64,000 nt of DNA from Candidatus Wildermuthbacteria bacterium. Lineage in GTDB: Bacteria; Patescibacteriota; Minisyncoccia; Minisyncoccales; UBA10102. The notes beneath the pieces were generated by a model. The model worked only from the letters and a program-made list of their open reading frames with translations, was not told the origin of the DNA and ran no database searches. The position numbers were made by a program, and so were the translations under genes. Positions 8,744-14,751 of the stretch are shown in pieces (the first letter of the stretch is position 1; every line of letters begins with the position of its first letter). The DNA lies in NCBI GenBank assembly GCA_016186115.1, contig JACPMK010000002.1:200983-264982 (forward strand), written 5' to 3'.

Positions 8744-9805
8744 TCAGCCGTGTTTTATTTCAATAACATCCCCGTCTCTAACAACGTATTCTTTCCCTTC
8801 GGTTCGAATCAATCCCTCTGCCATGGCTTCCGCAAGGCCGCCGGCTTCCAGCAATGCATCCCATTGAATTACCGCGGCCCGAATAAAATTTTTCTCAAAA
8901 TCGCTATGAATCACCCCTCCGGCTTGCGGCGCTTTTGCTCCCCGCACAATAGTCCATGCGCGTGTTTCATCGGGGCCGGTGGTAAAAAAAGTAATGAGAT
9001 TTAATATTTCGTACGCCCGTTGAATCAGTTCTGACAAATTCGATTGCATTCCAAGTTCTTGGCGTTCGTTGTCTGAAAGTCCGGCAATTTCTAATTCCTC
9101 TTGGAGATTTACCGCAACAAAAGAGCCGTGCGCCTTTTCTATGTTTTGTTTCAGTTCCAAAGGAATATCTTGGTTTTTTGAATTCAAAAGAAAAATAATT
9201 GGTTTGGCAGTAAGAAGCTGCAGTTCATGGAACACCGGCTCGCTTTCGGGATGCGATCTTTGATATTCCGTAGCTCGTACGCCCTGTTCAAAGAATTTTT
9301 TTGCATCCTGGAGAATTTGATTCTGCGCAATAGCTTCTTTTTTTCCCCCTCGCGCCTCCTTTTCCAAAGATAGAAGTCGTTTTTCTACTGTTTCCAAATC
9401 CTTCAGAAGCAACTCGGTGTGAATGGTATCAATATCGCGCAAAGGGTCAACGCTTTCCTCCACATGAATAATATCGGGATTCTCAAAACAGCGCACAACT
9501 TCTACAATTGCTGACACTTCTCGAATATGTGTCAAAAATTGATTGCCCAACCCTTCGCCCTTATTTGCGCCGCGCACTAACCCCGCAATATCAACAAATT
9601 CGATAACCGTAGGAATGATTTTTTGTGAATGAAAAAGCGCTGCGAGCTTTTGGAGCCGCTCATCGGGAACCTCCACTACCCCGACATTGGGATCAATCGT
9701 CGCGAACGGATAGTTGGCAATATTAACTTCTTTTTTTGTCAGCGCCTGAAATAATGTGGATTTCCCCACATTCGGCAGCCCCACAATTCCGACGGATAAG
9801 CTCAT
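8744..9805 (-). CDS. ychF: Ribosome-binding ATPase YchF
   Basis: 353-aa ORF with P-loop [11 protein letters not shown], motifs [10 protein letters not shown] and DIAGLV, and a C-terminal TGS-like end. Confidence 0.95.
   Translation of the reverse strand: MSLSVGIVGLPNVGKSTLFQALTKKEVNIANYPFATIDPNVGVVEVPDERLQKLAALFHSQKIIPTVIEFVDIAGLVRGANKGEGLGNQFLTHIREVSAIVEVVRCFENPDIIHVEESVDPLRDIDTIHTELLLKDLETVEKRLLSLEKEARGGKKEAIAQNQILQDAKKFFEQGVRATEYQRSHPESEPVFHELQLLTAKPIIFLLNSKNQDIPLELKQNIEKAHGSFVAVNLQEELEIAGLSDNERQELGMQSNLSELIQRAYEILNLITFFTTGPDETRAWTIVRGAKAPQAGGVIHSDFEKNFIRAAVIQWDALLEAGGLAEAMAEGLIRTEGKEYVVRDGDVIEIKHG
9738..9805 (-). repeat. Direct repeat copy 1 (first 68 nt of ychF)
   Basis: Identical at 66 of 68 positions (my count) to 14651-14718. 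Similarity drops sharply beyond that point. Confidence 0.85.
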
Positions 9806-9842
9806 AATTTTTACGCTATAAGGAGAAAATGTTATTGTCTAT

Positions 9843-10850
9843 TTAGTATACAGGTTTTTCTCCCAGCATCCAGTCAATCTCTTGTCGTAGTTTCTTCGTA
9901 TTACCATGGGTAATCATGCCAAGATACGATTGAACCGTTGCCATGTTCCTTCGTTTACGTTCTATGCCACGGAACATCCTTCGCTTCGTCACGGTTCGCA
10001 GTACCCGATGATCTGGGAAATGTACCCACCCGAGAAAATCTACTCCAGAAGCAACGGTTTGTATAAATGTTTTGTCGGGATGCAATTGAAGCCGCAAGTT
10101 GCTCCATAGAAAATCGCTGATTTTCGAGAGTATGTTTTCAAGCAATGTTCTATCTTTTGACAGAATAATAAAATCGTCAGCATAACGAATATAATATCTT
10201 ACCTTCAGTTTGTGCTTCAGAAACTGGTCAAACCTATTCATATATACATTCACCAAGAGCTGGGATGTAAGGTTGCCAAGCGGCAATCCAATTCCATTTC
10301 TGGTTGAATAAAAACTCCGAACGATTTGAGAAATAAGCCATACGGTATCTTCGTCTGGTATAAAACCTTTAATGATTCCCAAGAGTTTGCCTTGGTCTAT
10401 TGAGGCAAAGAACTTTTTTATATCAGATTTTAAGACCCACGCTGTTTTTGTATTATTTTTAGAAGCCCTATATGCAAAAACGCGAAACCTGTTGATTGCC
10501 CTATGTGTTCCTTTCCCAAGTCTGCAGGAATGAGAATCGGCTATAAAAGTTCTATCAAAGAACGGATATAATCTTCTGTAGAGAGCGTGGTGCAGCAATC
10601 TGTCTCTGACACTTGCCTTGTGAATGCTTCTTGGCTTCGGATCAGATATATTAAAGGCGTGATAAGGTGAATGTTTATACGTTTTGGCCACAAGGTCATC
10701 GTGGATAGAAATGATATTGCTCATCAAATTGTGTTCAAACTCTTGTACATCTTGGCGAGACCGTTTGCCAGTTACAAACTCTTTCCAAGCTTCAAGCAGA
10801 TTTTCAAGAGAAATGATATAATTATAGTTATGAGTGAATTGAACGTTCAT
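9843..10850 (-). CDS. Diversity-generating retroelement reverse transcriptase
   Basis: 335-aa ORF with RT motifs 1-7, including YIRYADDFIIL and the DGR-diagnostic motif 4 LPLGNLTSQ ([I/L]GxxxSQ). No maturase or endonuclease domain. The cognate TR/VR pair lies adjacent. Confidence 0.9.
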   Translation of the reverse strand: MNVQFTHNYNYIISLENLLEAWKEFVTGKRSRQDVQEFEHNLMSNIISIHDDLVAKTYKHSPYHAFNISDPKPRSIHKASVRDRLLHHALYRRLYPFFDRTFIADSHSCRLGKGTHRAINRFRVFAYRASKNNTKTAWVLKSDIKKFFASIDQGKLLGIIKGFIPDEDTVWLISQIVRSFYSTRNGIGLPLGNLTSQLLVNVYMNRFDQFLKHKLKVRYYIRYADDFIILSKDRTLLENILSKISDFLWSNLRLQLHPDKTFIQTVASGVDFLGWVHFPDHRVLRTVTKRRMFRGIERKRRNMATVQSYLGMITHGNTKKLRQEIDWMLGEKPVY

Positions 10851-11246
10851 AAAAAATCTTTTCAGGTAAGCCCCCCCCCACGCCTTTTACCGCTTCTTCA
10901 GAAATTGAAAGAGGCATATCTTGCGTGGTACGGCTACTACCAAATCTTACCTAAACTCCATCGCCATTCTCTTGGGCAAAGGATTGATACTCTTTTTGTC
11001 GAAATCATTGAAGCTGTTGCAATGGCAAGTTTTCTTTCTCCTCAACAAAAACATCCTTACGTGCGCCTTTCCATAAGAAAGCTTGATACATTAAAAATAC
11101 TCTTGATGGTTCTTTGGGAGACAAAATCTGTTGATGATAAAAAGTACATTGCTGTCTCTATAAAAATAAACGAGATTGGCAGAATGCTTGGCGGATGGAA
11201 CGGCCAATTACAGAAACAAAACTCTCCCGATAAGAGAGAGAAATGA
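10830..11246 (+). CDS. avd: DGR accessory variability determinant (Avd, four-helix-bundle protein)
   Basis: Avd-like pattern LP..QKLKEAYLAWYGYYQILPKLHRHSLGQRID and a C-terminal NEIGRMLGGW, comparable to EVGRILGSW of Bordetella phage bAvd. It lies on the opposite strand to RT, TR and target. The ATG at 10830 is the only canonical start, and it overlaps the RT start divergently by 21 nt, so the start is uncertain. Confidence 0.75.
   Translation: MSELNVHKKSFQVSPPPRLLPLLQKLKEAYLAWYGYYQILPKLHRHSLGQRIDTLFVEIIEAVAMASFLSPQQKHPYVRLSIRKLDTLKILLMVLWETKSVDDKKYIAVSIKINEIGRMLGGWNGQLQKQNSPDKREK
10871..10879. repeat. C9/G9 homopolymer tract
   Basis: Nine consecutive C residues encoding SPPP near the avd 5' end (codons 14-17 from ATG 10830), 21-29 nt upstream of the RT start on the other strand. 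Confidence 0.9.
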
Positions 11247-11252
11247 AGTAAG

Positions 11253-11389
11253 TTGCGGGGCAGGACGAAAGCCCACCGATTGTCAGGATTCCAGACATTG
11301 TCGGGATTGCCGTTGTTGCTGTTGAGCCATAGACCATTGTCATTGTGCTCGACATTGAACACGTTGAGGTTGCCGTCCGAGTCGGTTAT
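11253..11389 (-). repeat. DGR template repeat (TR)
   Basis: 137 nt aligning without gaps to 11739-11875 (offset 486). It reads as an Asn-codon-rich frame (ITDSDGNLNVFNVEHNDNGLWLNSNNGNPDNVWNPDNRWAFVLPRN). All but one difference from the VR are at A on the minus strand. Confidence 0.85.
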
Positions 11390-11734
11390 GCACAGAGTGT
11401 CATCTCTACCACTGCCCCTTGAATACTCTCGGGGCTGTATCGTATTCGGCATCTTTAATGCCCTAACACTCTATACCAAGTAGCTTCATTTTTTGAAGTT
11501 TCTGCGTACACCGCGCTATCTCAAACCGTAGTCGGAGATACTCTGGATGTATGGATACTGGGTTCGGCAGCAGAAAACCTTGATCTTCTGCGTATTCGCC
11601 TACTTCCATTTGTATTGTATCAAAGAAAAAGCCCCGCATCCATTCTTCGCTTGCGAGCGAAGACAGATACGGGGCTACAAACTCAAGGATCAAGTTTCGA
11701 GGATCCAAAAGATCCAAGATTCAAGACCCAAGAG

Positions 11735-12379
11735 CTACTTGCGGGGCAGGACGAAAGCCCACCGAAAGCCAGGATTCCAGACACGGTCGGGATCGCCGTT
11801 GCTGCCGTCGAGCCACAGACCACTGCCATCGTGCACGACAATGAAAACGCGGAGGTTGCCGTCCGAGTCGGTGATAGGATCCATTCCGATAAGGAACCAC
11901 TCGTCCATCGGCTGGTCAAGGTACTGCTCGCGCATGGCGGGACCAACTTCACCCGGACACCTCTGAAGACCAAGCTCCAAGGCACGCTTGTAGATGAGAT
12001 CCCGTCGCGTGGCAACCTTGAAGCCCAGCTGACTGCCAGTCACAAGCACCAGGTCCACCTCAACCACTTCCTGACTGCAGGAGGTCTTGTCGAGGATCTG
12101 GCTGGCATAGGTACCGATTTGGTACTTACCCTCGTCGAGGGCCTTGCGATACTCCCTGGGCGACTTGCGAAGACCAAGCTTGACGGTCTTCCAAATCTTG
12201 AACTCGGGGACAAGGACCTGCTGATCACGCCTTAGAATGGATGCGAAGTCCCGCTCTTCCTTGATGACCTGCAAGACATTGCAGACCTCGTCAGCGTCAC
12301 GCTTCCCGTCACGGATAAGCTCTAACACTCCCGTGGTCAGATCGAGTAACCTTGCCTTCTGCTTAGTTGTCGCAACCAT
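11735..12379 (-). CDS. DGR target (variable) protein
   Basis: 214-aa ORF whose last 46 codons are the VR. The C-terminal pattern ...NGDPDRVWNPGFRWAFVLPRK resembles FGE/C-type-lectin-fold DGR targets; the fold is an inference. Spot counts suggest higher GC than neighbouring genes. Confidence 0.8.
   Translation of the reverse strand: MVATTKQKARLLDLTTGVLELIRDGKRDADEVCNVLQVIKEERDFASILRRDQQVLVPEFKIWKTVKLGLRKSPREYRKALDEGKYQIGTYASQILDKTSCSQEVVEVDLVLVTGSQLGFKVATRRDLIYKRALELGLQRCPGEVGPAMREQYLDQPMDEWFLIGMDPITDSDGNLRVFIVVHDGSGLWLDGSNGDPDRVWNPGFRWAFVLPRK
11739..11875 (-). repeat. DGR variable repeat (VR)
   Basis: Counterpart of the TR with 19 mismatches, 18 at TR adenines. This changes 13 codons (for example N to R, I, D, S or F). 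The 3'-terminal 27 nt (11739-11765) are invariant and GC-rich, as expected of an IMH-like end. Confidence 0.85.
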
Positions 12380-12544: not shown

Positions 12545-13552
12545 TTGGATACAATGGATGGCATGGTAAAACATATAACCGACAGCCAGAGAAATGAAAT
12601 CTCCGTGCTCAAACGGGCAGGACATACGCAAAAAGACATTGCCAGGATGCTTGGCAAAGATCCTTCAGCGATATCCCGAGAATTACAGAGAAACAAAAGC
12701 GACGCAGGCAGGTACTTAGCCAGAGGCGCTAAGCTGAAAACCAAGGAGCGAAGAATACAAGCGAACAAGAGGTTTAAAAAGATTGAACACAACACAAAGT
12801 TAAGAAAGTACGTTGTTAAAAAATTGAAGAAGTATCTATCTCCCGAGCAAATAGCTGGCCAATGGACCAAAAGCCATCAAAATCAGCGCATCGGCAAAGA
12901 CACCATCTACAAGTTTGTGTATGGAAAACGAAAAGACCTGGTAAAGTATCTGCGGTGTCAGAAAGGCAAGTACCGGCGCAGATATGGCACCAGGATCAGG
13001 GAAAAACAGCGAGAAGAGAGTAAAAAGCGAAGAATAGACGTGAGACCGGAAATAATCAACCTGCGCCAGAGAATCGGCGACTGGGAAGGCGATACGGTCA
13101 AGGGCAGCGGCAGATCAGGGCACATTATCACCTACGTAGAAAGAAAGTCGGGGTATCTAGTGGCCGGGGAAGCAGAGAATGCAACGGCAGAGAACATCAA
13201 CGCGTTTACCATGGGAGAGTTTAACAAGATTCCTCGCGGCAAGAGACTATCTATTACCTATGACAATGGGTCAGAGTTCGCGGGGTATGCTACCATAGAA
13301 CAAAAGACTGGAATGACCGCGTACTTCGCCTTTCCGTACCACTCATGGGAACGGGGAACCAACGAAAATACCAATGGATTGGTCAGACAGTACTTTCCGA
13401 AAGGAACCGACTTTACCGATGCGTCTCTTTCAGCAATCAGGGAAGCTGAACAGAGGTTAAACTCCAGACCAAGAAAAACGCTGGGCTTCTACACTCCATC
13501 AGAGAGGTTTTACCAACTAATCACCGGGAAGAAAATTGCGTTGGAAACTTGA
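12545..13552 (+). CDS. IS30-family DDE transposase
   Basis: 335-aa ORF with an N-terminal HTH (QRNEISVLKRAGHTQKDIARMLGKDPSAISRELQRN) and a DDE core (GDWEGD...DNGSEF...ENTNGL). I could not define the terminal inverted repeats by eye. Confidence 0.9.
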   Translation: MDTMDGMVKHITDSQRNEISVLKRAGHTQKDIARMLGKDPSAISRELQRNKSDAGRYLARGAKLKTKERRIQANKRFKKIEHNTKLRKYVVKKLKKYLSPEQIAGQWTKSHQNQRIGKDTIYKFVYGKRKDLVKYLRCQKGKYRRRYGTRIREKQREESKKRRIDVRPEIINLRQRIGDWEGDTVKGSGRSGHIITYVERKSGYLVAGEAENATAENINAFTMGEFNKIPRGKRLSITYDNGSEFAGYATIEQKTGMTAYFAFPYHSWERGTNENTNGLVRQYFPKGTDFTDASLSAIREAEQRLNSRPRKTLGFYTPSERFYQLITGKKIALET

Positions 13553-14484: not shown

Positions 14485-14718
14485 TCAAGCCAAACCCGCA
14501 ATATCATAAAATTCTACAATGGCAGGCACCACTTTTGCCGAATGAAAAAGCTGGGCAAGTTTATCAAGCCGTTCGTCTGGAACCTGAACCACGCCCACAT
14601 TAGGGTCAATGGTAGCAAAGGGATAATTTGCTATTGTTACCGGCTTTCTCGTCAGCGCCTGAAACAACGTGGATTTCCCCACATTCGGCAGCCCCACAAT
14701 TCCGACGGATAAGCTCAT
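14485..14718 (-). pseudogene. Truncated second copy of the ychF 5' end (77 codons)
   Basis: [51 protein letters not shown]...DIAGLA* is collinear with YchF residues 1-77 and stops right after the DxxG motif. The first 68 nt are nearly identical to ychF; the rest is diverged. Confidence 0.85.
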
Positions 14719-14751
14719 ATCATAAATATCCTATCATAAAACTCTCTTTCT

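Follow-up and report, generated by a model that had tools for sequence, protein, structure and literature searches.

Does a run of nine cytosines near the 5' end of avd, the accessory gene of a diversity-generating retroelement (DGR), act as an on/off switch for that retroelement? The run lies in a 64,000-nt stretch of a Candidatus Wildermuthbacteria bacterium genome (GenBank assembly GCA_016186115.1, contig JACPMK010000002.1, positions 200,983 to 264,982 of the forward strand), which we call the window, and an earlier, sequence-only reading of the window had suggested phase variation there. We consider it likely that slipped-strand mispairing at the tract makes Avd translation phase-variable, and DGR activity with it. 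In the mechanism we propose, C9 would be the local copy of a conserved hypermutable repeat, carried in a short disordered leader of avd across a large DGR clade of the Patescibacteria. Slipped-strand mispairing at replication would alter the length of the repeat by +/-1 nt, or by 2 nt for dinucleotide repeats, and the change in length would decide whether the upstream start codon is in frame with the part of avd that encodes the four-helix bundle. An out-of-frame tract would silence mutagenic retrohoming and an in-frame tract would restore it, making the state both heritable and reversible. The tract may also tune transcription of the reverse transcriptase (RT) gene, being in its upstream region. 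Three features of the window are needed at the outset:

10871..10879, plus strand: C9 simple-sequence repeat (G9 on the RT strand), the proposed slipped-strand switch, part of S14-P15-P16-P17 of the Avd leader.
10830..11246, plus strand: avd (accessory variability determinant), 138 aa plus stop, identified from bAvd PF22296, the NCBI call, alignment and AlphaFold2.
9843..10850, minus strand: DGR RT, 335 aa, with an RVT_1 match at E=1.6e-23, divergent from avd.

The tract is bounded by G10870 and A10880 in the window sequence. It had been singled out as the longest G/C homopolymer of the window, and a run-length count bears this out: every other homopolymer in the 64 kb, whatever its base, is shorter, the runner-up G/C runs having 6 nt (n = 4) and A/T runs a maximum of 8. 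The chance expectation for C runs of at least 9 nt in the window is about 0.2 under independent, identically distributed (iid) or first-order Markov models, and about 0.02 when the observed run-length decay is extrapolated. G/C repeats are long enough to slip at about 7 nt or more, and the nine C lie inside the avd 5' coding region. Read from ATG 10830, the avd frame crosses the tract as AGC CCC CCC CCA, giving S14 P15 P16 P17, and on the RT strand 20 nt separate the G9 from the RT ATG, its residues being 21-29 nt upstream of the A of that codon; both the SPPP at codons 14-17 and the spacing to RT had been read correctly from the sequence alone. The same reading took ATG 10830 as the sole canonical avd start. 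TTG 10839 and ATG 10671 are also in frame upstream, but homologues and the NCBI call favor 10830. The RT frame has a TAA just upstream of the tract and no canonical start thereafter, which places the tract outside the RT open reading frame (ORF).

Four Logan assemblies of the same strain (SRR4343430, SRR12113430, SRR12113385 and SRR12113424) match the window at 100% identity over 1.6-4.1 kb, with identical RT and nine C in each. The tract length is therefore a reproducible consensus and not an assembly slip. This same-strain comparison is one of consensus assemblies (the window plus the four from Logan).

If the tract is a switch, other lengths should occur in close relatives. We compared the DNA of contigs encoding identical RT proteins, which formed seven groups, and called alleles ON or OFF by translating the consensus assemblies from the upstream ATG. 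The P0227 group, in which the RT call has an N-terminal extension and one place is shown, was uninformative. Repeat length varies in five of the seven groups, with the following alleles:

P0125: C9 and C10; ON with C9 (138-aa Avd), OFF with C10 (44 aa).
P0167: C10 and C11; ON with C10 (133 aa), OFF with C11 (out of frame).
P0181: C9 and C10; ON with C10 (125 aa), OFF with C9 (16 aa).
P0235: interrupted C9, C10 and C12; ON with C10 (138 aa), OFF with C12 (24 aa) and interrupted C9 (39 aa).
P0236: (CA)15, (CA)16, (CA)17 and (CA)18; ON with (CA)16 (137 aa) and (CA)17 (147 aa), OFF with (CA)15 and (CA)18.
Window strain: C9 throughout (five assemblies).
P0141: C9 throughout (three contigs).

Length variants with identical flanks thus move the reading frame in and out, and Avd toggles between full-length products of 125-147 aa and truncated ones of 16-53 aa, which is what had been predicted for slippage of the tract. 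Among these contigs, the repeat is the sole difference between L089 and L090 over 3250 nt, between L094 and L095 over 2323 nt, between L099 and L100 over 4041 nt, and between L084-86 and L088 over 1128 nt; it is likewise the sole difference among L106, L107 and L108 over 3.3 kb. Three contigs (L087, L096 and L097) end exactly in the tract. The alternative alleles turn up repeatedly among independent assemblies (NCBI, JGI, ENA and Logan), and alleles of the dinucleotide repeat vary too, which homopolymer sequencing error cannot account for. The multi-step allele series (9, 10 and 12 nt; 15-18 units) suggest repeated events.

The closest distinct relative of the window, L111, gives a further example. 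Its Avd is at least 90% identical to that of the window and its RT 79% identical, and the two share the flanks GTAAG-Cn-ACGCC. The window has C9 and is ON; L111 has C10, which leads to a 41-aa product, and is OFF. A gene caller started the L111 Avd at a downstream TTG (120 aa).

Two details of individual groups deserve mention. In P0236 (L106-L109), two upstream ATGs lie in different frames, and two of the three repeat phases yield full-length Avd (137 aa, or 147 aa from the second ATG); the second ATG would raise the fraction of ON alleles and yield Avd leaders of differing length. In L099 (about 1485-1497), a G-to-T change interrupts the repeat, giving GTGT-G9 against GT-G10/G12, and the repeat may there be stabilized or decaying through point mutation. 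L004, L034, L035 and L080 resemble further decayed tracts.

Is the repeat peculiar to a few strains? Scanning for relatives of the RT, with one genome per species, we obtained 80 Patescibacteria loci with RT identity of 59-81%, and counted repeat and layout in the 76 with upstream DNA. In all 76, avd is divergent from and directly adjacent to the RT gene. A pure C run of 6-14 nt, with a mode of 9-10, stands at the homologous position in 66 loci, and dinucleotide repeats do so in 5: (CA)10, (AC)8, (AG)11, (GA)10 and (CT)7. The sequence-only reading had pointed to a comparison of orthologous DGRs as a check, and the outcome is a hypervariable simple repeat, of one type or the other, at the homologous site of the junction in 71/76 loci (about 93%); 5/76 are without one, and one of these is a doubtful match. 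The 67 tracts, including that of the window, have lengths of 6 (1), 7 (3), 8 (9), 9 (24), 10 (19), 11 (9), 13 (1) and 14 nt (1). Across 542 kb of related loci, G/C runs of at least 8 nt number 62 at the junction and 4 elsewhere. What is conserved is some repeat at this place, not a particular sequence or length.

These data bear on whether the C run could be without function, a by-product of a PPP motif, of mutational bias, or of sequencing or assembly error. The aligned Avd N-termini share a PPP(R) consensus, the leader being otherwise variable in sequence; homopolymers are error-prone in sequencing; and the expectation of about 0.2 (iid) allows a single C9 in 64 kb by chance. Still, CCC makes up 26% of the Pro codons in the window, so that three CCC would occur by chance with P about 0.018, and a by-product would need every one of these Pro codons to be CCC. 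Tract lengths of 6-14 nt are not confined to multiples of three, and the dinucleotide loci encode THTHTH, RERERE or LSLSLS in place of PPP. Because of this codon share, these lengths, the dinucleotide loci and the variable, disordered leader, the Pro motif does not explain the homopolymer, and with the (CA)n, (GA)n and (CT)n lineages in view we rejected it as the source of the tract. Chance or artifact was rejected on the run-length statistics, the five concordant C9 assemblies, the enrichment of 62 against 4 at the junction and the recurrence of alternative alleles across the four data sources. The comparative data thus largely refute an origin without function, which we regard as very improbable. 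With its predicted disorder and variable sequence, the leader looks like a carrier for the repeat.

We also examined an outgroup set of 80 viral contigs with Avd relatives. Two close relatives on viral contigs carry (GA)19 and C8. The repeat is absent in 12/12 distant DGRs of the divergent type on viral contigs (RT 45-55% identical), and among canonical same-strand DGRs on viral contigs, 1/62 has even a G7. The repeat is therefore a clade-specific addition, required neither by DGRs nor by the divergent layout, and its absence from outgroups with the same layout weighs against a fixed role as a cis-element.

For the tract to act on Avd, translation must pass through it. The residues right after the tract, (L/I)LP(V/L)LQK, are kept despite synonymous codon changes, which indicates that they are translated. 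An alternative raised with the original proposal was that Avd initiates downstream, for example at TTG 10905. This fails as a family feature: the column of TTG 10905 is start-capable in 15% of the 34 well-aligned loci, those loci have no column with a conserved start codon between the tract and residue 33, and a start at TTG 10905 would cost helix 1 six residues.

The phase of the upstream start is less tidy. A conserved upstream ATG is in frame with the Avd core in 15/53 loci and in the other two frames in 18 and 20 (p=0.47 against one third), so selection does not hold the phase constant. If every in-frame start before the tract is counted, 26 of the 67 loci have ATG, 6 have GTG or TTG alone, and 35 have none. 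Such uniform phases fit frequent switching with OFF states common, and would also fit RNA slippage to which the frame is irrelevant.

RNA-level slippage is the main rival to DNA-level phase variation. On this account, RNA polymerase or the ribosome slips on the C run, or on its poly-Pro CCC-C codons, and supplies a constant low level of Avd, and length variation in DNA is a neutral by-product. The frames of 15:18:20 across species look unselected, as it would predict, and about half of the loci are without an in-frame upstream start, yet their DGRs look intact, with pairs of template repeat (TR) and variable repeat (VR). Moreover, CCC-C in the P site is prone to +1 slippage, ribosomes stall at PPP, and transcription can slip on long homopolymers. 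However, G/C runs are less slippery than A/T runs, and the dinucleotide repeats of 14-38 nt that occupy the same position (the five loci, P0236 and L112) are no known ribosomal slippery sites. Where frameshifting is programmed, the relation between the frames is normally constant, unlike here, and the two ATGs in different frames at P0236 are sensible only if the frame in DNA matters. On balance we judge recoding at the RNA level unlikely.

Several observations must be set against phase variation of Avd nonetheless. The five consensus assemblies of the window strain show no difference in tract length, and a search of JGI metagenome contigs for the window flanks with a variable tract gave 0 matches. 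The P0141 group, too, is uniformly C9. Consensus assemblies alone were compared, and high-rate switching within clonal populations is something we infer from their alleles. If Avd is needed, OFF alleles would be surprisingly common, at the 35/67 loci without an in-frame start; alternatively, with slippage at the RNA level, the frame may not matter. Some chance TTG or GTG is present in codons 19-27 of 14/18 OFF loci, where weak internal initiation could possibly produce a slightly shortened Avd. Finally, the requirement for Avd is knowledge from the DGR of a Bordetella phage, which belongs to another clade. There, the RT-Avd complex is needed for cDNA synthesis (PMC6182149), which is why OFF alleles should silence retrohoming; by this analogy, loss of Avd would silence the present DGR as well.

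On the other strand, the tract could serve RT. Here the G run would be a promoter spacer or an element of the 5' untranslated region, its length modulating RT transcription, with the overlap with avd secondary. On that strand, a TAnnnT hexamer comes immediately after the G run in 26/67 loci, against a background of 1.6% (p about 5e-29), and is found in 15/19 loci whose RT ATG stands exactly 13 nt from the tract; in those relatives the arrangement resembles a -10 box followed after 7 nt by a leaderless start. The narrow range of tract lengths (61/67 have 8-11 nt) is also what a spacer would show. The window itself, however, has CTTACC at the TAnnnT position and a 20-nt gap to the RT ATG, and a scan of the window for sigma-70-type promoters stayed at chance level, for which reason we claim no such promoter there. 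Dinucleotide repeats of 30-38 nt at the site misfit a 17-bp spacer, the 12 outgroup DGRs of the same divergent layout do without a repeat, and the frame effect on Avd is real whatever the RT promoter does. As a full explanation of the tract, a promoter role is in our estimate quite improbable. It is compatible with phase variation of Avd as a second output of one switch, and an effect on RT transcription is possible in the relatives, though not evident in the window. The on/off switch originally proposed gains strong support for the Avd frame, from the clade-wide repeat and the ON and OFF alleles, whereas its RT-expression part is putative.

A larger version of phase variation, with both outputs, can be put forward tentatively; we think it possible but doubtful. 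The repeat would be maintained clade-wide by second-order selection as a stochastic, heritable master switch on a targeted hypermutation machine, setting both Avd translation and RT transcription, a two-tier evolvability device. The overlap zone of the divergent, probably leaderless genes would let the repeat act through frame and through promoter geometry. Most cells would keep the mutator silent, and a small, constantly regenerated subpopulation would diversify the target protein.

The remaining features of the cassette are:

11253..11389, minus strand: TR, a 137-nt repeat 86% identical to the VR.
11739..11875, minus strand: VR, the 3' end of the target gene, forming the repeat pair with the TR.
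11735..12379, minus strand: DGR target gene, 214 aa, with no Pfam match and the VR in its C-terminus.
10830..10850, unstranded: head-to-head overlap of the avd and RT start codons (ATG...CAT), 21 nt, read from the sequence and kept in the major class of relatives.
10814..10822, plus strand: extended -10-like element TGATATAAT, ending 7 nt before avd ATG 10830.

The TR and VR differ at 19 positions over 137 nt, 18/19 of them at TR adenines, and the VR ends 4 nt ahead of the stop codon of the 214-aa target. RT homologues at E<1e-50 number more than 8000; their annotations read RT or retron-type RT, and Avd and TR/VR accompany them in their cassettes. The Pfam bAvd family (PF22296) matches Avd residues 24-124 (E=6e-11, score 43.2 against a gathering threshold of 40), and the NCBI call in a Candidatus Wildermuthbacteria metagenome-assembled genome is an identical 138-aa Avd (P0001). 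AlphaFold2 models Avd (pLDDT 83.6) as a four-helix bundle over residues 20-130, with helices at 20-37, 42-66, 71-97 and 103-130. Residues 1-19 are modeled as a disordered leader that hosts the repeat, residues 1-16 having pLDDT <50, and the bundle begins at L20. With a DGR-type RT beside the repeats, an adenine-specific TR/VR pair and an Avd four-helix bundle, the cassette of the window is a genuine DGR that was active in the past.

The VR is identical in all assemblies of the window strain that reach it, despite the ON allele of avd; either the DGR is rarely active, or one VR variant is dominant, or the samples are closely linked. Elsewhere VRs do change. L093 and L094, with identical RT, differ at three VR positions (547-550, the VR being at 447-577) and also in the tract (C10, ON, against C9, OFF), which shows that VR diversification occurs among near-identical strains. 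As the lone pair with differing VRs in the identical-RT groups, they are too few to relate ON/OFF state to VR difference. The differences between L099 and L101 fall between the VR and the TR.

Within the 21-nt overlap, each start codon is the antisense of the His7 codon of the other protein. TAnnnT-N7-ATG is recognized on the avd side in 53/67 relatives, and in many loci TAnnnT plus 7 nt precedes the ATGs of both avd and RT. This suggests leaderless avd and RT transcripts, back-to-back and overlapping by 21 nt. In the window, a leaderless avd mRNA could possibly start from TGATATAAT; the same bases encode conserved RT residues 10-13.

We looked for RNA structure as well. Neither the junction nor the TR-RT interval has an Rfam match at E<=1, and the region 3' of the TR folds no better than shuffled sequences (z=-0.9). 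Directly 3' of the TR there is a terminator-like hairpin (11222-11242, minus strand; CTCTCTC...GAGAG, then a T-rich tail). It is antisense to the strongly conserved C-terminal tail of Avd, KQNSPxKxGEK, and the count of terminators is at chance. An RNA element within the DGR RNA might be part of the reason why this tail is so conserved.

The DGR, its target gene, an IS30-like transposase (HTH_38 + rve; 12545-13552, plus strand) beside the target gene and a few small ORFs occupy about 4.7 kb, bracketed by a full ychF and a 77-codon fragment of the ychF 5' end. The two ychF 5' ends (minus strand, 9579-9806 and 14492-14719) are 78% identical over 228 nt, the first ~47 nt being identical, and all Logan contigs of the window strain end at 9762-9777, inside this ychF repeat. 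The 4.7-kb segment looks like an island inserted along with a foreign piece of ychF 5' sequence. Mobile genes also accompany relatives: a Transposase_mut and a resolvase/recombinase near the DGR in L084-86, and a phage-type integrase in L106-109. The close relatives L112 and L113 are IMG/VR viral contigs. This DGR clade may travel on mobile elements.

How does the locus compare with known switches? Poly-G/C contingency loci are found in Campylobacter jejuni, in Neisseria (hmbR/hpuAB/pilC) and in the C-run of Bordetella pertussis bvgS (PMC6321876, PMC3786947, PMC5084427, PMC1891110). As there, a G/C homopolymer of ~8-12 nt lies near the 5' end of an ORF, +/-1 nt switches the frame, near-identical strains carry alleles that are in frame or out of frame, and position is kept while length is hypervariable. 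At the level of sequence, the locus has the attributes of the simple-sequence-repeat (SSR) contingency class. Unlike in that class, the gene encodes an accessory protein of a mutagenic retroelement and not a surface antigen, uptake receptor or restriction-modification enzyme; the hosts are environmental Patescibacteria and not host-adapted pathogens; and the repeat has a disordered leader of its own and has given way to dinucleotide repeats in some lineages.

Among DGRs, the point of reference is Bordetella phage BPP-1, with its order avd-TR-brt and its bRT-Avd complex (PMC6182149, PMC5758913). The present DGR shares with it an RT, a four-helix-bundle Avd and a TR/VR pair with adenine-specific differences, and an Avd-RT complex would be expected. 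It differs in that avd, located between TR and RT, is encoded on the other strand and has a start codon overlapping that of RT head-to-head by 21 nt, and in that Avd has an N-terminal leader bearing a hypermutable repeat. For BPP-1, as in the DGR surveys we read, there is no account of an on/off device of this kind.

Stochastic repeat switches on enzymes with wide effects exist in phasevarions, where Mod methyltransferases are phase-variable, and in reversible mutators, where repeats mediate switching of mutL/mutS. The present switch would likewise act on an enzyme that alters many phenotypes or the supply of mutations, but by targeted hypermutation of one protein region through reverse transcription and not through genome-wide methylation or mutation rate. 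Promoter repeats between divergent or adjacent genes include the (TA)n of Haemophilus influenzae hifA/hifB and the poly-G and poly-C spacers of Neisseria porA and opc. Here, too, a tract lies between divergent genes and abuts a -10-like hexamer in 26/67 relatives, so that it could set both; in contrast to those systems, it is the avd reading frame that is clearly affected, and a promoter role is a candidate. Related work on promoter repeat tracts is described in PMC12721329.

We found no description of a repeat switch on a DGR in the accessible literature, although an earlier mention in the survey of DGRs in the candidate phyla radiation (CPR) by Paul et al. 2017 is still possible. Homopolymers, repeats, avd frameshifts and DGR phase variation go unmentioned in PMC5758913, PMC8144416, bioRxiv 2024.11.15.621889 and PMC11661182. 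What is new here is the combination of an SSR contingency switch with a DGR.

The finding has a practical side for annotation. Gene callers shorten avd (98-120 aa) or miss it in OFF alleles, and DGR catalogues may under-count Avd or label such cassettes defective. An antisense ORF through the TR (131 aa; 11057-11452, minus strand, in the window) is often called in place of avd. Contigs with one or the other of these miscalls are L001-L003, L089, L100 and L101.

The control of DGR activity is a largely open question, as is the way in which hosts keep down the cost of a built-in mutator. Patescibacteria are among the phyla contributing most DGR-containing genomes (PMC11661182). If our interpretation is true, a repeat switch on Avd would be a simple answer to the question of DGR control for a very large clade, tract phase would predict VR diversity in metagenomic time series, and OFF populations would have frozen VRs. 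It may also be a first indication of classical contingency-locus behavior in ultra-small, uncultivated bacteria.

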